Shown here: positions 3,810 to 62,736 of the stretch, piece by piece
Numbering within the stretch: position 1 is the first letter of the stretch
Layout: each line of letters begins with the position of its first letter
NCBI GenBank assembly: GCA_965197405.1
Contig: OZ240206.1
Coordinates: 2,251,096-2,315,095 of the forward strand
Direction: 5' to 3'
DNA: 64,000 nt
Source: Dehalococcoidia bacterium
GTDB taxonomy: Bacteria; Chloroflexota; Dehalococcoidia; Lucifugimonadales; JAGWBF01
Translations under genes and position numbers: made by a program
Notes under the pieces: generated by a model
Told to the model about the DNA's origin: nothing
The model's input: the letters and a program-made list of their open reading frames with translations, nothing else
Databases searched by the model: none

Positions 3810-4679
3810 CTATTCACTCGTGTAAAAGGCTATTCCCAGGAGGCCGGGGCCCAGGTGAGCGCCCATGACAGGGGTGAACTCACTGATGAAAAGCTCCTGG
3901 CAGTTGAACTCCGCCTCTATTCGCCGGTACAGATGTTCGGCGCCATCGGCGGCCTGGGCGTGCATCACGTTCACGTGTACCGGCCTATCCCGGACCCGGT
4001 CTTTCGTGACGCTCAGAAGCCTGTCCATAGCCTTGGCGCGGCTCCTGGGCTTGTCCACCATCCTGGCTTCTCCCAGCTTTAGCTCCGTCAGGGGCTTTAT
4101 CCCCAGGAGAGAACCGGCCCAGGCAGCTACCCTGGGCACTCTGCCGCTTCTCCTCAGATAGTAGAGAGTGTCCAGGAAGGCCAGCAGATTTACCTTGGGT
4201 ACAAGCTCTTCTATCCTGGACAACACCCGTTCCAGGTCTGCCCCTTCCTGGGCGGCCCTGGCAGCCTCCAGGGCGATAAGCCCCTCCGCCCCCGCGGCGG
4301 CCCTGCTGTCCACCACCTTGATTATGTGGCAACCGGCTAGCTCGTCTTCCGCCATACGAGCGGCGACGGAAGCGGAGCTGTAGGTGGAGCTGAAATTGGT
4401 GGAAAGGGTGATGCAGACGACGTTCTCGGCGACGGCGCTTGCGGAGCGGAATGCCTCCAGGAATACGTCGGGCTTGGGGGAGGAGGTGCTGGGTATTTTC
4501 TGGTTCTTCTGGAGGAGCTGGTAGAACTCGTCAGGCTCTATGTCAATGCCGTCCCTGAAAGACTGCTCATCAATTATCAACTCGTGGGGAACAACGTATA
4601 TATCCGACTCCTCCAGAAGGGCGCGTGGCAGACAACTGCTACTGTCCACCACCACGGCTACCTTGCGCTTGTGAACCAA
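3810..4679 (-). CDS. DegV family fatty-acid-binding protein
   Basis: VAVVVDSSSCLP N-terminus and the PSTSSPKP (TSxPSP-like) motif. 289 aa, typical DegV length. Confidence 0.85.
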   Translation of the reverse strand: MVHKRKVAVVVDSSSCLPRALLEESDIYVVPHELIIDEQSFRDGIDIEPDEFYQLLQKNQKIPSTSSPKPDVFLEAFRSASAVAENVVCITLSTNFSSTYSSASVAARMAEDELAGCHIIKVVDSRAAAGAEGLIALEAARAAQEGADLERVLSRIEELVPKVNLLAFLDTLYYLRRSGRVPRVAAWAGSLLGIKPLTELKLGEARMVDKPRSRAKAMDRLLSVTKDRVRDRPVHVNVMHAQAADGAEHLYRRIEAEFNCQELFISEFTPVMGAHLGPGLLGIAFYTSE

Positions 4680-5674
4680 TGGGTCACAACCTCGCTATTG
4701 CCTTCGCCTTCAATAGACGGATAAGGCTGTTCTTTTCTTTCCAGTCTCGACTGTATGATAGCAGGGCTGAGGAGAAATGCCACCGAGGCAAGGGTGATGA
4801 GTATCACGGAAAGAAGGCTAAAGCCGAATGGGATAGCCACTATGGTGAACACCACCAGCACGGCTGTGGAGCCTGTGAGCAGAGCGACCTTCAGGAGCCT
4901 GTGCCGGGCTTTCATAAAAACGCCGGTGGTCACCGCGAGGGCTAAGAACACCAGCGCTCTATCCGCATCAGCCGCCTTGACTTCAGCCGCATTGGCCGCC
5001 CAGAAACCGTCGCCGCGCCAATTGAGCAACAGCGCCCAGGAGGTCAGGAAGGGGAAGGGCAGCGCGGTGAGGGATGCCAGGAGCCAGTCCTGTCGCACTA
5101 CCTTGACGATTACATTGGCCATTATCCACAGGGAGAAGGGAATATAGGCTATGATGAGCAGGTATATGGGGAAGCTGAAGGGCAAGGCCCCCGTGGTGAA
5201 GTACGTCCACGCGCCATAGCCGAGGGCTCCCAGGGCCATAACCCAGGAGAGGGCGGGCGCCGCCATCGAGTACCCCAGCCAGGTGTAGGTCCACTTGGGC
5301 CTCCCGGACTTCCAGGCCCTGAGGGCGATGAAGGTGACGGCGATTATCAGCACTATCACCAGGAAGTACCGGGTCCAGAGGTGCAGGGCGAAGAGGGATG
5401 CGAGAAGAAGGTGGGGCAGCGCGGCCAGGAATATGTCTCGCCAGGAACCGACGCTATGCACCGAGTACATACTCTTGGCAACCAGGTCGGGATGCCCCAT
5501 GTCGCGCACGGCCTGGGAGAGGGCCTCATCGCGGGTTAGGCCTTCTTCCTCCAGGTCGTGGGTCTTTTCCTCAAGGTGGCCCTGAAGCTCGAGGGCTATC
5601 TCTCGGTTCGTGTTGGGATCGAGTTTGAGCTTCCTCGTCAAAGCCTGGAGGTAGCTCTGAAGCTCTCCATCCAC
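4658..5674 (-). CDS. polytopic membrane protein with N-terminal cytoplasmic helical domain (PadR-associated sensor/anchor type)
   Basis: An N-terminal ~75 aa soluble helical region is followed by at least 6 hydrophobic helices. It lies 21 nt downstream of the PadR gene and overlaps the DegV start by 22 nt. Confidence 0.55.
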   Translation of the reverse strand: MDGELQSYLQALTRKLKLDPNTNREIALELQGHLEEKTHDLEEEGLTRDEALSQAVRDMGHPDLVAKSMYSVHSVGSWRDIFLAALPHLLLASLFALHLWTRYFLVIVLIIAVTFIALRAWKSGRPKWTYTWLGYSMAAPALSWVMALGALGYGAWTYFTTGALPFSFPIYLLIIAYIPFSLWIMANVIVKVVRQDWLLASLTALPFPFLTSWALLLNWRGDGFWAANAAEVKAADADRALVFLALAVTTGVFMKARHRLLKVALLTGSTAVLVVFTIVAIPFGFSLLSVILITLASVAFLLSPAIIQSRLERKEQPYPSIEGEGNSEVVTHWFTSAR

Positions 5675-5695
5675 CGGGTTCTCCTTAACGGGGGT

Positions 5696-6028
5696 CTAGG
5701 GCGCGGGGGCCGGCATTATGGAGTTGACGGCCCTGGCGAAACGTTGCCATTCACTCAGACGTTCCTCCAGCACCTTCTGCCCTTTGGCCGTGATGTGGTA
5801 GTAACGCCGTGGGACGCTCGAGGCCTCATCTCCCCATTTCCCCTCCACCAGCCCCGCCTTCTCCAGCCGGTGCAGGGCGGGATAAAGGGTCCCCTCCTTG
5901 AACTGGAAGTACCCACTACTGCGCTTCTCCATCTCCTTGACTATCCTGTACCCATACATAGCTTCGCCGACCAGCAGCGAGAGGAGGAGGGTCTCGGTAT
6001 TTCCCTTCAGTAGCTCTTTGTGGTACAT
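5696..6028 (-). CDS. PadR family transcriptional regulator
   Basis: 110 aa winged-helix protein: LLLSLLVGEAMYGYRIVKEM...GTLYPALHRLEKAGLVEG. Confidence 0.85.
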   Translation of the reverse strand: MYHKELLKGNTETLLLSLLVGEAMYGYRIVKEMEKRSSGYFQFKEGTLYPALHRLEKAGLVEGKWGDEASSVPRRYYHITAKGQKVLEERLSEWQRFARAVNSIMPAPAP

Positions 6029-14067: not shown

Positions 14068-14167
14068 ATTGTATAGATGGCGGCTAACCTCGTCAATGCC
14101 ATAGCTGGCCGTCTAAGGGTCTTTTAATGATACGTGAAAGAATCACTAAAGCCTGGTGCTTCCCCAA

Positions 14168-14562
14168 CGTCACTCCCGCGAAAGCGCGAGTCCACCGCAG
14201 GGATTGGTGGACTCCTGCTTCCCCAGGAATTGCGGGTAGGACTGGTTTAGATATTTGCTCACGCGTCAGTAATTCTTGACTCTAGGCTAATACAGGCCCC
14301 GGAGCGTGTCATTCCGAACGGAGCCCTTCGACAAGCTCAGGATAAACTCCGCGACGAGGAATCTAGGGCGTGTTCACATAAAGGAGCGCAGGGCGTCCGA
14401 AATGCCCGCGTCATGTCATTCCGAATGTAGTGAGGAATCTAAAGAGCCTCTTCACGATCATGGCGCCATTCAGGCGACGGACACACGTAGCATTGCCAGG
14501 CCCGCTTTATGGACATGGACTTTAGATTCCTCAGTCGCTTCGCTCTTTCGGAATGACATTGT
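14168..14562. repeat. composite repeat region including a ~257-bp unit duplicated at 57292-57549
   Basis: 14170-14196 is GTCACTCCCGCGAAAGCGCGAGTCCAC. 14306-14562 is bounded by inverted GTCATTCCGAA... modules and is about 90% identical by eye to 57292-57549. Confidence 0.85.
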
Positions 14563-14863
14563 GGGTAGGGGGGACGAGGAAGGAACACGCCTTAATTCCA
14601 TCGCCCTGCTCAAGAAGACAGGGCCTTTTCAGGGTCCGATGGCAGGTGGAGAATATGGCGGCCGGTTGGGAGATACTCATCCGGAGTTGTTGGGCCTGCC
14701 GGGACTGAGTCGCAGTCCCTTCGTGGCCGCACTGTCTAGGCTGCTGCGGATGGTGCTGGTGTCTGGAGTGCGCCAGGCCCTGATGAGGTTCTCGGAGCAA
14801 CTCGCTGGGTTGCGCGGTTGTGGAGTTGAAGTGGCTGCTCCGCCGGTGCTCAGGAGACCATGC

Positions 14864-15316
14864 TCAGGCGCTCTTCCGGTCCCTCTTTTCCTCCATCGTC
14901 TTCTTTATAAACCCCACGATGTCTTGCGTGGATACGCCCGGGCCGAATATCGCCGTTATACCCGCCTGGAGCAGGGGTTCCCGGTCCTCCTCCGGTATGA
15001 TCCCTCCCGCCACCACCGTCACATCATCCATGCCCTTCTCCCGGAGGCCTCGCATTATTTCGGGGAAAATCTCCAGATGCGCGCCGGAGAGTATGCTGAG
15101 CCCTATCACGTCCACGTCTTCCTGGGCCGAGGCCTCCACGATCATCTGTGGGGTCTGGCGTATCCCCGTGTAAATGACCTCCATCCCCGCGTCCCTGAGC
15201 GCTCTCGCCACCACCTTCGCCCCCCGGTCATGGCCGTCGAGCCCGGGTTTGGCTACAAGCACCCGTATTGTGGTGTTTTGCTGTGCCATAGAATGACCAC
15301 CTCTTAGATTCCTCAC
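14864..15316 (-). CDS. methylmalonyl-CoA mutase, cobalamin-binding small subunit
   Basis: B12-binding DxHxxG motif ([12 protein letters not shown]). The probable true start is ATG 15289 (MAQQNTT.., SD AAGAGGTGG). The first 9 ORF-track codons are repeat sequence. Confidence 0.85.
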
Positions 15317-17041: not shown

Positions 17042-17122
17042 TTTGCACCTCCGTCAAGCTGTCAAACTAATGATGTCAATACTATGAGTAAGCATGATAG
17101 CATTGCCGTGAAAATACCCTTC

Positions 17123-17189
17123 GTCATACCCGCGAAAGCGGGTATTCACATCCCCGGCGTCCCTGGACTCCCGCTTTCGCGGGAGTGAC
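17123..17189. repeat. inverted doublet of GTCA-prefixed GAAA-tetraloop hairpins (REPIN-like)
   Basis: 17123-17149 is GTCATACCCGC-GAAA-GCGGGTATTCAC. 17164-17189 is the reverse complement of GTCACTCCCGC-GAAA-GCGGGAGTCCAG. Confidence 0.85.
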
Positions 17190-17260
17190 GGTGAGAAAGC
17201 CCAGCCGCGATTTTCATCCCCTTGTCTGGCCTTGTAAATGCCATAGCCATGCAAACCCGG

Positions 17261-20809: not shown

Positions 20810-21985
20810 ATGCCTATCGCCGGACTGCCCCTGTTCCCCGTCACTGTAGTAGGTAGCTGGCCGAGACCCCCCTGGCTGCTGGAGGCTCTCAGGAATCGCC
20901 AGGCGGGCCGCACCACCTTCGAAGAGTTCAATCAGGTGGCCGATAAAGCCGTGCTGGAGTCCGTCAAGTACCAGGAGGACGCGGGCGTTGACATCGTGAG
21001 CGATGGCGAGCAGCGAAGGGACAATTTCTACTCCTTTGTGGTGGAGAAGCTGGACGGCGCCAAGCTCATGAGCTTGGCGGAGCTGATGAACTACGTAGAG
21101 GACAAGGAGGCCTTCGACGCCATACTGCGGGTCCGGGACGCGCCCGCCTTCGCCATTCATAACACAACGGTGGTGGGCAAGGTGGAGCGGCGCCAACCCC
21201 TGGCCCTCGACGAGTACGCGTTCCTGCGCCAGCACACCTCGAAGCCCATCAAGGTAGCGCTGCCCGGCCCCTACCTGCTCACTCGTTCCATGTGGGTCAA
21301 GGGCGTGTCTGACTCCGCGTACCCTACCATGGCAGACCTCGCCACGGACATCGTAGCCATCCTCCGGGAGGAGCTGATTGCCCTGCGCGACGCCGGGTGC
21401 GACTTCGTACAGTTCGACGAGCCGGTGCTGACCGACGTGGCCTTCAACCCGGAGGTGCAGGAGCGCACCTTTATGTGTGCTTCAATGGCTGCGTCCTCGG
21501 GGAACCCCATGCAGGAGCTGGTGTTTGCCCTCCGCCTGATGAACGAAATCCTCCGGGGCGTGGATGGGGTGGAAACCGGCATCCACGTCTGCCGCGGCAA
21601 CTTCAGCCGCAAGGAGGAAGCCCTGCTCCAGGGGGACTACGAGCCTCTCCTGCCCTATCTCTTGGCTATGCAGGCCGACCAGCTTGTTCTGGAATACGCC
21701 ACCCCCAGGGCCGGGGACATGGACGCCTTCGGCAAGCAAAGAGAGGTCCGGGAGATTGGCTTGGGAGTGGTCAATCCCAGGTCCGACGAGATAGAAGACG
21801 CGGACTCCGTCATAAGCAAGGTGGATGAAGCGCTCAAATACTTCTCCCCCGACAAGATATACCTCAACCCTGACTGCGGATTCGGGACCTTTGCCGAGCG
21901 GCCCATGAACACCCCGGAGGTCTCCTTCAAGAAGCTCCAGGTCATCACCGAGGCTGCCCAGAAGCTCAGGAAGACCTACGCCTAG
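20810..21985 (+). CDS. cobalamin-independent methionine synthase-like (MetE C-terminal domain family) Zn methyltransferase
   Basis: VTVVGSWPRP N-terminus and Zn-ligand motifs IHVCRGN and NPDCGF. 391 aa, a single domain. Confidence 0.75.
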   Translation: MPIAGLPLFPVTVVGSWPRPPWLLEALRNRQAGRTTFEEFNQVADKAVLESVKYQEDAGVDIVSDGEQRRDNFYSFVVEKLDGAKLMSLAELMNYVEDKEAFDAILRVRDAPAFAIHNTTVVGKVERRQPLALDEYAFLRQHTSKPIKVALPGPYLLTRSMWVKGVSDSAYPTMADLATDIVAILREELIALRDAGCDFVQFDEPVLTDVAFNPEVQERTFMCASMAASSGNPMQELVFALRLMNEILRGVDGVETGIHVCRGNFSRKEEALLQGDYEPLLPYLLAMQADQLVLEYATPRAGDMDAFGKQREVREIGLGVVNPRSDEIEDADSVISKVDEALKYFSPDKIYLNPDCGFGTFAERPMNTPEVSFKKLQVITEAAQKLRKTYA

Positions 21986-22034
21986 CGGAAAAGGCGAGCA
22001 AAGTTCCCCCATCCTGTCCAAAGAGAGTGAATAT

Positions 22035-22219
22035 CACGGTCGTTTCATTGTCACCCTGAGCGGTAGCGAAGGGTCTAAAGTCCTTCTCCCCAGTGTTGTT
22101 TCGCTTGCGAGGCATTTTAGATTCTTCGTCGCTCCGCTCCTCAGAATGACACGCGGTGGGGGCCTGCCTGCTGCAGGCAGGCCTGTATTCACCTGATGTC
22201 GAGAATGAAACGACCCTGG
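22035..22219 (+). mobile_element. MITE-like element, full copy (185 bp)
   Basis: The left end CACGGTCGTTTCATTGTCACCC is inverted at the right end GAGAATGAAACGACCCTGG. Internal GTCACCCTGAGCGGTAGCGAAGGGTCTAAA and TTAGATTCTTCGTCGCTCCGCTCCTCAGAATGAC modules form a long imperfect palindrome. Confidence 0.8.
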
Positions 22220-22220
22220 A

Positions 22221-22751
22221 GTGAGTATGGAGCAGCCGCGACAGTTGAACGGAATTGACCTGGACGCTCTGGATGAGGGACTGAAGGAGGTTGGGGAGCA
22301 GGAAGAGGCCCGCCACTCCAGGAAGAGGTCCCGCACCCAATGGCTGGGCGGCTTCAGGTTCAACGCCTTCGTGCGCAACAACACCTTCCTGGTCGAGGAA
22401 CCGGCCAGCCCGGCTGTCACGGAGCAGGTCCCAAACTCGATGGAGTACGTGCTGGGGGCCCTTGGGGCCTGTCTTGCCACGGGATTCGTCCTGAACGCCA
22501 CCCAGCGAGGCATAACCATTCACAACCTGGAGATAGCCTTGGACTCCAGCCAGGACAACGTCTTCACCTTTTTCGGTCTGAGCGAGGAAGGGCATCCGGG
22601 GTTTCAGGAAATCCGGGCGAAGCTGTACGTGCAGACCGAAGCCGCCGAGGAGACCGTTCGCGAGATATGGGACCGTGCCGTGAAGACCTCTCCCGTGGGC
22701 AACTCCCTGGGGCGAAGCGTGACCATCACACCGGAGCTATCGGTGCTGTGA
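22221..22751 (+). CDS. OsmC-family protein (single-Cys subtype)
   Basis: 176 aa with the GALGACLATGF core. Start is GTG 22221 or ATG 22227, immediately after the MITE end. Confidence 0.7.
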   Translation: MSMEQPRQLNGIDLDALDEGLKEVGEQEEARHSRKRSRTQWLGGFRFNAFVRNNTFLVEEPASPAVTEQVPNSMEYVLGALGACLATGFVLNATQRGITIHNLEIALDSSQDNVFTFFGLSEEGHPGFQEIRAKLYVQTEAAEETVREIWDRAVKTSPVGNSLGRSVTITPELSVL

Positions 22752-26784: not shown

Positions 26785-26830
26785 GGCAGACCGCTTCTTC
26801 CCTCAGAGGATGTCTGGCAAGGTACAGGCG

Positions 26831-26938
26831 CACTTCCTCTCCCTCGACGGGAGAGGATTGAGGTGAGGGTGATGCGACGGCGCCCCCTCATCCTAACCTT
26901 CTCCCACCAGGGGAGAAGGGACTTCTTGAACACCCTCT
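26831..26938. repeat. second copy (deletion variant) of the 'C' hairpin element
   Basis: Reads CACTTCCTCTCCCTCGACGGGAGAGGATTGAGGTGAGGGTGATGCGACGGCGCCCCCTCATCC..CCTTCTCCCACCAGGGGAGAAGGGACTT. It aligns with 683-816 minus the second arm of the middle hairpin. Confidence 0.8.
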
Positions 26939-28097: not shown

Positions 28098-28170
28098 GGC
28101 TCTAACACCTCACACCCCGCTGTAATACCAGCAGCCCATCAGGATGAAAGCACCAGCCTACTAAAATCTC

Positions 28171-28358
28171 CAGCGTCTCTTCATTGTCACCCCGAGCGAT
28201 AGCGAGGGGTCTAAAATCCTTTTCCTCGGTGTAGGTTTGTTCGTGAGGCATTTTAGATTCCTCACTCCGCTTCGCTCCGTTCGGAATGACGCGCGGTGGG
28301 CGCCTGTATTCACCTAACGTCCCTGCCTGACCGCAGGTAGGGAGAATGAGACGACCCT
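28171..28358 (+). mobile_element. MITE-like element, full copy (188 bp) between dxr and cdsA
   Basis: Left end is CAGCGTCTCTTCATTGTCACCCCGAGCGATAGCGAGGGGTCTAAAATCC. Right end is ..TTAGATTCCTCACTCCGCTTCGCTCCGTTCGGAATGAC..GGGAGAATGAGACGACCCT. Confidence 0.8.
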
Positions 28359-28381
28359 ATTAAGACCTCCGGGATAGACTG

Positions 28382-29386
28382 CTAGCCGGACGATTTCAAC
28401 ACCAGCGCGACAAGATAATACACCACCGGCAGGGTGAAGACAATCGAGTCCAGCCGGTCTAAAAACCCCCCGTGGCCTGGAAGGATACTTCCGGCGTCCT
28501 TGACCCCGGTGGCCCTCTTGAGACGAGACTCCGCCAGATCTCCCAGCTGGGCGAATACCCCTATGACCGCCCCCATCAAGGCGGCTTGCCAAAGGGGTAC
28601 TGACAATTGTAATGGAACTCCCAGGCCCACAGCAATGCCAACAGCCCACACAAATCCGCCAACTGCCCCCTCCCACGTCTTGTTGGGGCTTATGGAGGGG
28701 GCCATCGGGTGTCTCCCCACCATCCGGCCCGTGAAGAATGCCCCCGTATCGGTGGCAAAAGTCACCACCAGGGCGAAAAGGAGCCAGTCCCTACCGAAAT
28801 TGTCGGCGCCTCCCTCCAGCTCCCGGAGCATCAGGGCGTGGGCCAGGAGGAAGCCCAGGTATACCGGCCCGCCTACAGCGTAGGTCCACGCGGCGAGAGC
28901 GCCGTCCCTGTTGCGGTTGAGGATGAGCCAGGGGAGGGCTATCAGGAGGCCCGCGCCGAGGAGCACGTGGGGAGCGTAATCGTACCACTGGCCGGCGAGC
29001 TGTCCCGTGACGATGAACAGTATAGTCCACAGGCCCCCCAGGAACAGCCAGGGTCTTTTGATTGTCATCCTGAGGAGCGAAGCGACGAAGAATCTAAAGC
29101 TCTTAACTAGGGAATCGGCCTTGACTTGCAGGAGGGATTTTAGACCCCTCACTCCGTTCGGGGTGACAGTTAAACTGCTTGGGGTAACACTCGGACTGTG
29201 CGGGGTGACAATTGAATGGCCTTCCAGGAGGAGAGAGGGTTGGGGGGCGGGAGACATCCGGTAGAGTTCCCACAGTCCCAGCAGGGCTGCCAGGGCCACG
29301 ACAATGGGGAGCCAGGGGAAGCCTCCCCAGACGGCGCCAATGAGAAGGGGTACACCCACCAGGGCGGTAAGTATTCGCTTGATCAA
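28382..29386 (-). CDS. cdsA: phosphatidate cytidylyltransferase carrying a ~60-codon repeat-derived insertion
   Basis: Canonical N-terminus (KRILTALVGVPLLIGAVWGG..) and C-terminal signature SRLKRATGVKDAGSILPGHGGFLDRLDS. 334 aa against about 270 expected. The extra segment (aa ~53-113) is encoded by the MITE at 29048-29228. Confidence 0.85.
   Translation of the reverse strand: MIKRILTALVGVPLLIGAVWGGFPWLPIVVALAALLGLWELYRMSPAPQPSLLLEGHSIVTPHSPSVTPSSLTVTPNGVRGLKSLLQVKADSLVKSFRFFVASLLRMTIKRPWLFLGGLWTILFIVTGQLAGQWYDYAPHVLLGAGLLIALPWLILNRNRDGALAAWTYAVGGPVYLGFLLAHALMLRELEGGADNFGRDWLLFALVVTFATDTGAFFTGRMVGRHPMAPSISPNKTWEGAVGGFVWAVGIAVGLGVPLQLSVPLWQAALMGAVIGVFAQLGDLAESRLKRATGVKDAGSILPGHGGFLDRLDSIVFTLPVVYYLVALVLKSSG
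29048..29228 (-). mobile_element. MITE-like element inserted inside the cdsA reading frame
   Basis: Left end is CCAGGGTCTTTTGATTGTCATCCTGAGGAGCGAAGCGACGAAGAATCTAAAG. It continues ..ATTTTAGACCCCTCACTCCGTTCGGGGTGAC.. and ends GTGACAATTGAATGGCCTTCCAGG. Same module order as the intergenic copies. No stop codon in the cdsA frame. Confidence 0.8.
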
Positions 29387-34288: not shown

Positions 34289-34486
34289 CCAGTGTCTTCC
34301 AATTGTCACCCCGAGCGGAGTGAGGGGTCTAAAGTCCTAGTTGACCGCTGTGTTTTTCTGGCCGGTACGCCTTGATCCCGGTCCCTGTTAGGCGCCATTT
34401 CAGATTCCTCACTCCGCTTCGCTGTGTTCGGAATGACACGCCGCGAGGGCCTGTACTCGCCCAGCGTCGAGAATTGAATGACCCTG
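34289..34486 (+). mobile_element. MITE-like element, full copy (198 bp)
   Basis: Left end is CCAGTGTCTTCCAATTGTCACCCCGAGCGGAGTGAGGGGTCTAAAGTCC. Right end is ..TTCAGATTCCTCACTCCGCTTCGCTGTGTTCGGAATGAC..GTCGAGAATTGAATGACCCTG. Confidence 0.8.
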
Positions 34487-45377: not shown

Positions 45378-45413
45378 GTATCGTTCATAGATTGTCAGAT
45401 GAAGGGCTATCTA

Positions 45414-45845
45414 TCAGCCCGCAGTCACTGACCCCGGCTCGGTCAGGGGTTGCAGTATGTCCAGGACAGTCTCTATCTGATCAAGTCCTCTACCAATGGC
45501 GTCGGGGCGCAAGAGCATCTTGCGGGTGTAAAAGAACCCGTGCAGTGTGTTAGCAACGTGCCACAGGCCGGGCAGTCGGGCATCGGGAGACAGGTCTTCG
45601 GCTTGGTACATCACTTTGAAAAACTCGTCGTGGGCCTTATATTGCCAGTCCTGGGCTTCCGCGACGGCCTTGGCCATCCAGGCAGCGGCGCCCCAACCCT
45701 TTTCCGACGCCTGGTGCAAGTCGCCATCGGCCAGGTACTCCCGCGCCTTGGCTAGGAAAACCCTGGACTGCCGACGGTAGTCGGCCACGGCGTTGCCATC
45801 CTGCTCATACGGTTCCATTGTGGACATTTGACTCATCCGGTGCAT
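45414..45845 (-). CDS. helical protein, PaREP1/HEPN-like by motif memory (paralog 1)
   Basis: About 140 aa with AREYLADGDLHQASEKGWGAAAW and LHGFFY motifs. Start is ATG 45836 or 45845. Confidence 0.5.
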   Translation of the reverse strand: MHRMSQMSTMEPYEQDGNAVADYRRQSRVFLAKAREYLADGDLHQASEKGWGAAAWMAKAVAEAQDWQYKAHDEFFKVMYQAEDLSPDARLPGLWHVANTLHGFFYTRKMLLRPDAIGRGLDQIETVLDILQPLTEPGSVTAG

Positions 45846-45902
45846 CCTCTCCCTGATGTGGGAAGCTAAACACCTCCACCTGTCAGATAAAGGGGCTATC
45901 TA

Positions 45903-46325
45903 TCAGCCCGCAGCCACTGACCCCGGCTCGGTCAGGGGTTGCAGTATGTCCAGCAGGACCTCGACTTTATCAAGGTCTTGACCGATGGCATCTGGGATCA
46001 GGAACATCTTGCGGGTGTAGAAGAACCCGTGCAGTGCGTTCGCGACATACCCCAGATCATGCACTCTGGCATCACGCGACAGGTTTTCGGCTTGGTACAT
46101 CACCCTGAAAAACTCTTCGTGAGCTTTGTATCGCCAGCCTTGGGCTTCCGCGACGGCCTTGGCTATCCAGGCAGCCGCGCCCCAACCCTTTTCCGACGCC
46201 TGATGCAAGTCGCCATCGGCCAGGTACTCCCGCGCCTTGGCTAGGAAAACCCTGGACTGCCGACGGTAGTCGGCTACGGCGTTGCCATCCTGCTCATACG
46301 GTTCCATTGTGGACATTTGACTCAT
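45903..46325 (-). CDS. helical protein, PaREP1/HEPN-like by motif memory (paralog 2)
   Basis: 140 aa. The first 53 aa are identical to paralog 1. Start chosen at MSQMSTM (46325); the ORF-track extension to 46424 overlaps the upstream gene. Confidence 0.5.
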   Translation of the reverse strand: MSQMSTMEPYEQDGNAVADYRRQSRVFLAKAREYLADGDLHQASEKGWGAAAWIAKAVAEAQGWRYKAHEEFFRVMYQAENLSRDARVHDLGYVANALHGFFYTRKMFLIPDAIGQDLDKVEVLLDILQPLTEPGSVAAG

Positions 46326-46336
46326 CCAAGCTATCC

Positions 46337-46549
46337 TTACTCGCCATCTTCCAGGACCTGGTAGCAGTGCTTGCACACAAATACCAGCGCCAGGGCCTCC
46401 TCGTGGCTGGCGATGCGCCCGCACTGGGGCACCTGGGCGTCAACGCTCCAGGGTTGGTGAAACTTCCTGCCGCACATCTGGCAGGAGGCCTGATGGACCT
46501 CGTCCAGAGGCCCATCACATACTACGCACAGCTCCTCCGGCTCCGTCAA
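46337..46549 (-). CDS. small Cys-rich zinc-ribbon protein (70 aa)
   Basis: CVVC..x13..CQMC..x16..C..x16..CKHC. TTG start 8 nt after an AAAGGAGG that lies inside the end of cca. Confidence 0.5.
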   Translation of the reverse strand: MTEPEELCVVCDGPLDEVHQASCQMCGRKFHQPWSVDAQVPQCGRIASHEEALALVFVCKHCYQVLEDGE

Positions 46550-48924: not shown

Positions 48925-49137
48925 CCAGGGTCGTTTCATTGTCACCCTGAGCGGTAGCGAAGGGTCTAAAGTCCTTTCCCTGGGTGTCGGTTTGCTCGTG
49001 AGACATTTCAGGTTCTTCGTCGCTCCGATCCTCAGAATGCCGCATGGTGGAGGGTCTGTCTGCTGCCAGGCAGAAGCAGGTCTGTATTCACCCCTGCCTG
49101 GCGGCAGACAGGTAGTGTCAAGGATTAAACGATCCTG
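48925..49137 (+). mobile_element. MITE-like element, full copy (213 bp) starting at the nucleotide after the rex stop codon
   Basis: Left end is CCAGGGTCGTTTCATTGTCACCCTGAGCGGTAGCGAAGGGTCTAAAGTCC. It continues ..TTCAGGTTCTTCGTCGCTCCGATCCTCAGAATGCC.. and ends GTCAAGGATTAAACGATCCTG. Confidence 0.8.
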
Positions 49138-57246: not shown

Positions 57247-57718
57247 CAGTCTTTTCATTCTCGACGTTACTCGCTGTCAGGCCCCCGCCGCGTGTCATTT
57301 CGAACGGAGTCCTTCGACAAGCTCAGGATAAACTCCGCGACGAGGAATCTAGGGCGTGTTCACGCAAAGGAGCGCAAGGCGTCCCGGAATGCCCGCGTCA
57401 TATCATTCCGAACGCAGTGAGGAATCTAAAGAGCCTCTTCACGGTCACGGCGCCATTCCGGCGACGGACACGCATAGCATTGCCAAACCGGCTTTATGGG
57501 CATGGACTTTAGATTCCTCAGTCGCTTCGCTCTTTCGGAATGACAGTGTGGGGGGCGACGAGAAAGTGTGAACACTACCTAGAATGGCGCTTAACAAAAA
57601 CCTGAATCAAAGCAGCGCCAGCCAGAACAAGACCGCGATCAGCCAGGACTTTTAGACCTCTTGCTTCGCTCGGAGCCTGCCCCTGGCTTGAACAGGAGGT
57701 GACAATCAAAAGACCCTG
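57247..57718 (-). mobile_element. composite (nested) MITE-like element, ~470 bp
   Basis: The ends CAGTCTTTTCATTCTCGAC.. and ..GTGACAATCAAAAGACCCTG are inverted repeats of the family termini. The interior carries the 257-bp unit 57292-57549 (copy of 14306-14562) plus further modules. Confidence 0.75.
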
Positions 57719-62518: not shown

Positions 62519-62736
62519 GTGGATCTCAAATGATTGTCACCCCGAGCGGAGCGGAGGGGTCTAAAATGCTGGCTGGCCGCGGTCTTGTTCTGCCGGTACG
62601 GCTTGATCCCGATTTTTGTTAGGCGCTATTTCAGATTCCTCACTCCGCTTCGCTCCATTCGGAATGACACGCGGCGGGGTCTGTATTCGTCTAACGTCCC
62701 TGTCTGACGCCAGGCAGGGAGAATCAAACAGGCCTG
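62519..62736 (+). mobile_element. MITE-like element, full copy (~218 bp)
   Basis: Left end is ..CAAATGATTGTCACCCCGAGCGGAGCGGAGGGGTCTAAAATGC. Right end is ..TTCAGATTCCTCACTCCGCTTCGCTCCATTCGGAATGAC..GGGAGAATCAAACAGGCCTG. Confidence 0.8.

Follow-up and report, generated by a model that had tools for sequence, protein, structure and literature searches.

An in-frame copy of a MITE-like repeat in the cdsA gene of a Dehalococcoidia bacterium

We describe a cdsA gene with an in-frame insertion, found in a 64,000-nucleotide stretch of DNA from a Dehalococcoidia bacterium of the phylum Chloroflexota (contig OZ240206.1, positions 2,251,096 to 2,315,095; this whole stretch is called the window, and positions are counted from its first letter). 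CdsA, phosphatidate cytidylyltransferase, is a nine-helix membrane enzyme of phospholipid synthesis that most bacteria need, and its gene is presumably essential in this bacterium as well. Relative to its orthologues, the window CdsA has about 60 additional residues between its second and third helices (M2 and M3). Judged by its sequence, this block is an in-frame copy of a repeat resembling a miniature inverted-repeat transposable element (MITE), inserted in cdsA. We consider it likely that the gene is translated through the insert and that the product is an active CdsA whose cytoplasmic loop is lengthened, with the insert as a tolerated passenger.

A block of CdsA without counterpart in orthologues

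The minus-strand open reading frame (ORF) at 28382-29386 encodes a full-length CdsA. Its product matches PF01148 (CTP_transf_1) along its full length (E=9.7e-57, with residues 3-328 aligned to positions 2-263 of the 264-position profile), keeps 36 of 36 family-invariant columns in an 83-sequence set, and carries the C-terminal signature K-D-x-G...P-G-H-G-G-x-x-D-R-x-D-S with all catalytic-signature positions intact; its AlphaFold2 model matches the fold of TmCdsA. The 334-residue product would be expected to form CDP-diacylglycerol from CTP and phosphatidate. The gene sits in a conserved housekeeping cluster, rpsB-tsf-pyrH-frr-uppS-cdsA-dxr-rseP-ispG-proS, with uppS and dxr as its immediate neighbors.

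CdsA homologues number in the thousands among 5.8 billion proteins, and the closest insert-free ones are at most 79% identical over the aligned part and about 273 aa long. Residues ~54-113 of the window CdsA have no counterpart in any of the 13 nearest or the 82 aligned orthologues (~273 aa each). The net surplus at the M2-M3 site is 60 aa (180 nt), and a 61st surplus residue belongs to a separate one-residue indel near aa 197 (ADNFGRD vs ADS-SRD). In the nucleotide alignment the insert lies between ...CTC CTC CTG and CTG TTC CTG GGG, in a loop that is short and variable in close relatives. The element copy contains no stop codon in the cdsA frame, and two of its six frames are open. An earlier note, made from the letters of the window, had recognized a canonical CdsA with some 60 codons beyond an expected ~270 aa, encoded by a stop-free repeat copy, and had proposed an alignment of orthologues as the check. 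The canonical CdsA, the stop-free frame and the approximate surplus all hold; the surplus is now given as 60 aa net at aa 54-113, from what were probably 62 codons of added DNA. The alignment maps the insertion to a site that is unoccupied in every orthologue, none of which has a homologous segment.

The insertion is present in several assemblies. A 90%-identity protein cluster contains four 334-aa CdsA variants, 97-99% identical, from the window and from three further assemblies, the latter on contigs with the same synteny; the ENA assemblies concerned are ERZ25067183, ERZ25072076 and ERZ25072670. Each of the four alleles is 334 codons long, and the insert is free of stops and indels in all of them, whereas a neighboring intergenic copy of the repeat, 130 nt downstream of the gene, has lost 5 nt from one hairpin in L002 (L002:1581-1764). 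Because the same insert-bearing allele is intact in the window and in these three assemblies, an assembly artefact is ruled out; a self-splicing intron or intein is also rejected, as there is no Rfam match, no such Pfam domain and a length of only 60 aa. The rest of CdsA appears free of decay, its mean distance to outgroups being 0.426 (insert excluded) against 0.420-0.452 in insert-free relatives.

The repeat family and its copy in cdsA

The repeat family is built from hairpin modules of ~30 nt, of the type (T)GTCAYYCNGA...TCTAA, with 18 matches in the window against a mean of 0.06 in shuffles. These modules occur singly, as inverted pairs and in mosaics in intergenic spacers, and are assembled into longer elements. 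A family profile (nhmmer) gives 20 hits at ~13 loci in the 64 kb, about one locus per 5 kb, and all but the cdsA copy are intergenic. Copies are 160-215 nt long and lack a transposase gene; only short spurious ORFs overlap them. The full-length intergenic copies share one layout, in which a left end, CAGGGTCGTTTCATTGTC, is followed by a forward hairpin, a spacer, a reverse hairpin, a G+C-rich tail and a right end, GAGAATGAAACGACCCTG, that is the inverted left end. Terminal inverted repeats (TIRs) with the consensus CA(G/C)GGTCGTTTCATTGTC ... GAGAATGAAACGACCCTG are found at the 22035, 48925 and 34290 copies and in L088, L091 and L093 (imperfect, CAGGGTC...GACCCTG). Target duplications measure 9-11 bp and include a perfect CCATTCCTAG(C) at 48925, a perfect GCGCCGGAC in L093, a locus from a JGI metagenome, and TCAGTTCC in L091. 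Together, the TIRs and the 9-11 bp duplications point to transposase-type insertion.

Copies also differ in presence between related genomes. L001-L003 carry the copy at 28171, which the syntenic spacer of L007 lacks, and the copy at 34290 is absent in L004 and L007, whose spacer is ~200 nt shorter. Other short palindromes occupy the cdsA-dxr spacer of L004 and L009, and the family model has no hits in the sister-species loci L004-L007. The cdsA site is not alone in being unoccupied elsewhere: it is empty in all orthologues, as the intergenic sites are in sister-species contigs. Small size, lack of a transposase gene, dispersed copies, TIRs, target duplications and presence/absence polymorphism make the behavior of the family MITE-like, as the earlier note had proposed from the letters. 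The family is not built for coding, since most of the other copies are of a length not divisible by three and stops interrupt most of their frames; only 1 of the ~13 window loci, the cdsA copy, is intragenic.

The family is apparently undescribed. Rfam has no family for the element; in the window only three tRNAs pass gathering thresholds, and 28100-29300 yields a chance match to a long non-coding RNA family (E=0.5). Among the top-ranked literature matches there is no MITE report from Dehalococcoidia or Chloroflexi. In JGI metagenomes the hairpin-module pattern recovers five intergenic copies on unrelated contigs and none inside genes, the subfamily spacer pattern has no matches, and the metagenome contigs that bear the hairpin module differ widely in base composition. 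Gene callers turn repeat copies into spurious small ORFs: ORFs of 49-106 aa are called in intergenic element copies, at L001:7136-7285, L002:1683-1832 and L003:6444-6593 and as the entries P0125, P0126 and P0127, and these populate protein databases as domain-less small proteins. The ORFs 14306-15307, 291-812 and 21966-22595, which overlap repeat copies in the window, have no Pfam domain and were likewise judged spurious.

The copy in cdsA scores E=2.5e-32 against the family model (nhmmer; it is itself among the seeds), and a 27-mer of the element recurs at 22124-22150 with 2 mismatches, where shuffles gave none. Over the 111-nt core, which comprises hairpin, spacer and hairpin, identity is 86.6% with L088, an intergenic copy found on a different contig of the same metagenome samples, and 74% with the window copy at 22035. 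In gene orientation it is collinear with the intergenic L088 and L091 and with the window copies. One of its termini is good (CAGGGTCTTTTGATTGTCA) and the other degenerate (TGACAATTGAATGGCCTTC). The claim that it has the termini and module order of the intergenic copies is accordingly right for the termini and the two hairpin modules, which are common and collinear, but not for the remainder: the cdsA copy is without the G+C-rich tail module, it has 42 extra nt (29169..29209) that the alignment shows to be absent from L088, L091 and the window intergenic copies, and its spacer places it in a subfamily other than that of the window's intergenic copies. The two 21-nt units of the extra segment start GTCACCCC and GTTACCCC and give the motifs VTPHSPS and VTPSSLT; tandem duplication was rejected as the origin of these VTP motifs, Tandem Repeats Finder scoring no tandem repeat. 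RNA folding z-scores are -0.02 for the cdsA copy, -1.45 for L088 and -7.8 (-91.1 kcal/mol) for the copy at 22035; as RNA, the 22035 copy is strongly structured and the cdsA copy does not exceed shuffles. The features of the gene, the insert and the full-length copies are collected in Table 1.

Table 1. Coordinates of cdsA, of the element copy within it and of the full-length intergenic copies in the window
Feature	Position	Strand	Details
cdsA (phosphatidate cytidylyltransferase) ORF	28382..29386	minus	334 aa, TTG start, TAG stop
Codons 1-44, helices M1 and M2, 5' of insert	29255..29386	minus	AlphaFold2 helices at residues 2-21 and 25-44
MITE-like element, ~175-177 nt, ends uncertain by ~6 nt	29049..29223	minus	encodes ~aa 55-113: EGHSIVTPHSPSVTPSSLTVTPNGVRGLKSLLQVKADSLVKSFRFFVASLLRMTIKRPW
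Putative target-site duplication, upstream copy (gene orientation)	29224..29234		CCAGGAGGAGA on + strand; CCAGGAAGAGG in allele L003
Putative target-site duplication, downstream copy (gene orientation)	29038..29048		CCAGGAACAGC on + strand; encodes L114-F115-L116
Hairpin module TGTCATCCTGAGGAGCGAAGCGACGAAGAATCTAA	29063..29097	plus	gene strand encodes FRFFVASLLRMT; inverted pairs with 22116-22151 and 49007-49039
Hairpin module TGTCACCCCGAACGGAGTGAGGGGTCTAA	29140..29168	minus	encodes VTPNGVRGLK; pairs with 34301-34337, 92% complementarity
Extra ~42 nt between outer terminus and first hairpin module	29169..29209	minus	two degenerate 21-nt units
Internal ATG, Met107	29066..29068	minus	inside element; upstream sequence GCTTCGCTCCTCAGG
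Predicted tryptic junction peptide of insert-bearing CdsA			MSPAPQPSLLLEGHSIVTPHSPSVTPSSLTVTPNGVR
Full-length intergenic copy	22035..22218	plus	best preserved; TIRs CACGGTCGTTTCATT...AATGAAACGACCCTG; 10-bp duplication GAGTGAATAT/GAGTGAGTAT, 9/10 match
Full-length intergenic copy, cdsA-dxr spacer, downstream of cdsA	28171..28358	plus	nhmmer E=1.5e-40
Full-length intergenic copy, between dCTP-deaminase-like and luciferase-like genes	34290..34486	plus	nhmmer
Full-length intergenic copy	48925..49136	plus	perfect direct duplication CCATTCCTAG(C), both flanks
Full-length intergenic copy	62531..62735		same layout

Flanking the element in cdsA, 29224-29234 and 29038-29048 match at 8-9 of 11 positions. 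In allele L003 a direct repeat with a period of 186 (TTCCTGGGAGGC upstream vs TTCCTGGGGGGC downstream) matches at 11 of 12 positions in a shifted register. An element of ~175-177 nt between the two flanks, taken with the 9-11 bp duplication of the family, therefore amounts to 62 added codons. The ends are placed only to within ~6 nt, because the outer end resembles the flank and no unoccupied-site allele of cdsA was found within the same species.

We propose that a non-autonomous MITE-like element, with imperfect TIRs, two oppositely oriented hairpin modules and 9-11 bp duplications on insertion, moved by transposition into the part of cdsA that codes for the short, variable M2-M3 loop. Copy and duplication together probably added a multiple of three (~186 nt, 62 codons), and a landing frame without a stop kept the downstream catalytic part in frame. 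The allele then became fixed in this species-level lineage, with translation from the TTG straight through the insert most likely yielding a working CdsA with ~60 extra residues in its cytoplasmic M2-M3 loop. In so important a gene, presumably only an in-frame, fitting copy could persist. The insertion looks like a single event.

Several observations weigh against this account. A 186-nt event implies an ancestral loop of 9 aa, compared with 11-12 aa in all relatives. The putative target duplication is degenerate, the element ends being uncertain by ~6 nt, and the window shows no cognate transposase gene with the ends of the family. Among the four alleles, substitutions in the insert number 5 (3 non-synonymous and 2 synonymous), too few to show selection (dN/dS is uninformative). 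The N-terminal 44 residues have an outgroup distance of 0.416 against 0.349-0.394 in insert-free relatives, a difference of about one or two substitutions. Finally, the second cdsA proposed as a check by the earlier note was not found within the 64-kb window, a scope to be set against a chromosome of ~3.4 Mb.

Place of the insert in the enzyme and competing readings

AlphaFold2, run with an 83-sequence alignment in which no row covers the insert helix, models the 334-aa CdsA with a predicted local distance difference test score (pLDDT) of 87.2 and a predicted template modeling score (pTM) of 0.81, with helices at residues 2-21, 25-44, 81-110 and 112-129 onward. In Foldseek the only strong matches of the model are TmCdsA 4Q2G/4Q2E (E~1e-7, TM-score 0.78 normalised to target), and the family profile aligns with 4Q2G from the first helix on (E=7.6e-37). 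The window product is thus predicted to have the nine-helix CdsA fold. TmCdsA has nine helices and a periplasmic C-terminus (PMC4083444), so that its N-terminus is cytoplasmic; with a cytoplasmic N-terminus and nine helices, the M2-M3 loop is cytoplasmic too. In the model, whose core fold is confident, the insert falls within this loop as a coil and a helix, which agrees with the loop between the second and third helices that the earlier note had suggested.

Within the insert, residues 51-80 are coil of low confidence (pLDDT ~57), and residues 81-110 form a helix (pLDDT ~80) that runs into M3. The insert has 8 Lys/Arg vs 2 Asp/Glu (net charge +6), a moderate hydrophobic moment of 0.4-0.55 and no membrane-like segment, its maximal 19-residue Kyte-Doolittle average being 0.89. 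These properties fit a cytoplasmic site and an unchanged topology. Half of the insert is predicted to be disordered and rich in Ser/Thr/Pro, and it is followed by a predicted basic amphipathic helix by which M3 is prolonged on its cytoplasmic side.

The same loop holds low-complexity inserts of 130-150 aa, rich in Pro/Ala/Ser/Asp/Glu, in CdsA proteins of other Dehalococcoidia/SAR202 (L013:9926-11146, L023:9905-11206, L025:9902-11206, L027 at about 4557-5714, and L041:9926-11224). Because inserts of this size sit there in other lineages, the M2-M3 loop is demonstrably permissive. L041 duplicates the motif FYRFHPPA(L/V)STP at the start of its loop, and the nhmmer matches in L027 fall outside its cdsA.

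Passage of the insert as a tolerated passenger has to be weighed against three other readings. One holds that the insertion inactivates or impairs this cdsA and that CDP-diacylglycerol is made through a second gene elsewhere in the genome. With 64 kb of the ~3.4-Mb chromosome in view there is room for such a gene, and the N-terminal part is, as noted above, marginally more diverged than in relatives. We nevertheless regard impairment as unlikely: the gene sits in its conserved housekeeping cluster, shows no overall rate acceleration, keeps all catalytic-signature positions and has an intact frame in four diverged alleles. The presence of one cdsA locus per related genome record among the best 80 of 493 matches points weakly in the same direction.

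Translation might instead restart within the element, at the in-frame ATG of Met107 (29066-29068), as the earlier note had raised. The active product would then be a 228-aa CdsA without M1 and M2, and the first 106 codons a remnant. We find this improbable, since no Shine-Dalgarno-like motif lies upstream of Met107, where neighboring genes have motifs of the GGAGG/GAGG type, and since the 106 upstream codons stay open in all four alleles. Residues 1-44, moreover, retain every invariant and nearly invariant family column and are hardly more diverged than in relatives. A product begun at Met107 would have its start in the cytoplasm, where native M3 also begins, and could keep its topology if the window protein follows TmCdsA. 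In TmCdsA, however, M1 is an N-terminal domain that helps to shape the cytoplasmic substrate cavity and forms part of its wall, and M2 lies at the dimer interface in the middle domain, M2-M5 making up the dimer-interface domain (PMC4083444). Nor do the short CdsA entries of 230 aa in the database offer a precedent, as their start codons are probably miscalled. Among P0052, P0053 and P0071, which are CdsA entries of 230-242 aa, this holds at least for P0053; it corresponds to the L008 gene, where the open frame runs on upstream through M1-M2 from a non-ATG start.

Least probable of the three, in our view, is that the repeat-encoded segment has been co-opted, its basic amphipathic helix (aa 81-110) aiding membrane-surface binding, partner binding or regulation. 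The modeled 30-residue helix (pLDDT ~80, though no alignment row covers it), its hydrophobic moment of 0.4-0.55 and net charge of +6, and the lineage-specific expansion of the M2-M3 loop in relatives are all compatible with such a role. Yet helix predictions are common for amphipathic single sequences, the insert peptide follows directly from the frame in which the element is read and recurs in the small ORFs of intergenic copies (P0125-P0127), the closest relatives function without the insert, and the insert peptide bears no sign of selection. We favor a translated but passive insert.

Other repeats, significance and comparison with known systems

Further repeats were noted in the window and the related loci. 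Two composite blocks of ~300 nt (14270-14588 and 57249-57575; 87-93% identical) combine several hairpin modules with unique spacers and are larger than the ~190-nt elements; the ORF 14306-15307, which begins within one block, is without a Pfam domain. Hairpins of the GTCAYWCCCGCGAAAGCGGG type lie in intergenic spacers at 926-958, 14163-14195 and 17117-17200, the last an inverted pair. An unrelated 86-nt intergenic repeat with a CTCTCCC...GGGAGAG hairpin occurs at 653-738 and 26802-26887. A 300-nt direct repeat (45404-45703 and 45893-46192; 84% identity, spaced 489 nt apart) coincides with the adjacent minus-strand ORFs 45414-45845 and 45903-46424, which are probably tandem paralogues. Just upstream of the L091 element copy is a tandem array of ~33-nt units (CCTATGCAAGCAGGAGACAAnnGAAGCC; L091:2880-3085), and at L091:4435-5766 the gene of a major facilitator superfamily (MFS) transporter is divided between two neighboring ORF calls (246 and 193 aa), possibly a sign of disruption. 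The sister species carries an insertion sequence (IS) transposase (DUF772 + DDE_Tnp_1 + DDE_Tnp_1_6) within a few kb of cdsA, at L004:11739-12822, L005:11704-12822 and L006:10650-11764; it is whole in L004 and fragmented in L005 and L006. These DDE_Tnp_1 genes do not match the family model.

The case amounts to a clean natural experiment, in which a selfish repeat lies inside a nine-helix membrane enzyme and both insert-free orthologues and several alleles are available; the in-frame situation is rarely documented this cleanly. If the insert is translated, as we infer, the CdsA M2-M3 loop tolerates ~60 foreign residues, which would make it useful for tags or fusions in CdsA. No new mechanism is revealed, and the case is not shown to be recurrent. 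An exhaustive HMMER search with the insert peptide across 1.84 billion representative proteins returned 16 hits, of which 3 are small ORFs in element copies, and no other genuine host protein. The remaining hits match only over short stretches that are of low complexity or resemble hairpin or CRISPR repeats; most lie in short ORFs that have no Pfam domain, and two others are a repeat protein rich in Cys and a giant secreted repeat protein. A word-indexed search with the same peptide gave 2 small ORFs.

A broader idea is that repeat-derived DNA may be a recurrent source of loop segments in essential membrane enzymes of free-living Dehalococcoidia, with CdsA loops as hot spots and the helix perhaps already co-opted. 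The MITE-derived 60 aa, a hairpin repeat in L056 and the SAR202-type inserts of 130-150 aa point to this without proving it, and we hold it to be doubtful; if true, it would be a process like that of the Rickettsia palindromic elements (RPEs) outside obligate intracellular bacteria. In L056 (10304-10423; metagenome-assembled genome CBDANP01, contig CBDANP010000007.1), CdsA contains 35 aa, GPYPLEDDKRRPFPSFPRSLFSWKRGAGIHTNTVP, that the L043 protein lacks, inserted in frame in another loop. The DNA of this insertion contains a hairpin, GTCATTCCCGCGAAGC...GCGGGAATC (also given as GTCATTCCCGC...GCGGGAATC), an arm of which recurs many times in other Dehalococcoidia loci (L024, L031 and L053), and it looks like a second, independent case of a repeat in cdsA. 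At L043:10397-10492, CdsA has a 28-aa insertion, DSWLISEGPSLFVRVEVGQVFRSLDSWS, with duplicated LDSW motif flanks, partly shared with L047; no repeat family was detected there.

Among known systems, RPEs are the closest in outcome. As relayed in PMC10969869 from Ogata et al. (2000, 2002), they carry a conserved ORF and occur in dozens of genes, with 44 insertions in R. conorii genes. The likeness lies in a short (~150-180 nt) palindromic mobile repeat, placed in frame in a housekeeping gene and encoding a fold-compatible peptide, and the parallel that the earlier note had drawn is sound to this extent. The habit differs, however. RPEs are very often intragenic and have a conserved ORF, whereas in the cdsA family lengths are mostly not multiples of three, most frames contain stops and 1 of ~13 loci is intragenic; recurrent insertion into many unrelated genes was seen neither at the ~13 loci of the window nor among the 1.84 billion representative proteins, where no other host protein has the peptide. 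The cdsA insertion looks like a single event, unlike those of Rickettsia. The host here is a polytopic membrane enzyme from another phylum of free-living bacteria, and no sequence relationship between the two repeats is seen, although no direct comparison with RPE sequences was made; the relatives of the insert peptide are only three small ORFs in copies of its own element.

Other mobile repeats also reach into genes. Intragenic ERIC and QMITE1 copies have been reported (PMC10969869), and QMITE insertions in Coxiella are mostly C-terminal extensions, new stop codons and insertions in hypothetical proteins (PMC5896051). Like the present family, ERIC, Coxiella QMITE1/2 and cyanobacterial MITEs (PMC10969869, PMC5896051) are mostly intergenic with an occasional in-frame ORF fusion or extension; the insertion in cdsA differs in being internal to a well-characterised enzyme, with unoccupied-site orthologues and four alleles. 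REP/BIME repeats share the ~30-nt G+C-rich hairpins, found singly, as inverted pairs and in mosaics in intergenic spacers, but the full-length copies described here have TIRs and 9-11 bp target duplications and match no Rfam family. The SAR202-type inserts (L013, L023, L025, L027 and L041) occupy the same loop of the same enzyme and are likewise large, probably disordered and tolerated; they differ in composition and length, and no relation to the repeat family was detected. Collectively, in-frame MITEs are known from Rickettsia and a few other bacteria, and the copy in cdsA adds an apparently new repeat family, a new phylum and a membrane-enzyme host, extending the "protein-coding palindrome" phenomenon of Rickettsia to an uncultured, free-living lineage of Chloroflexota.

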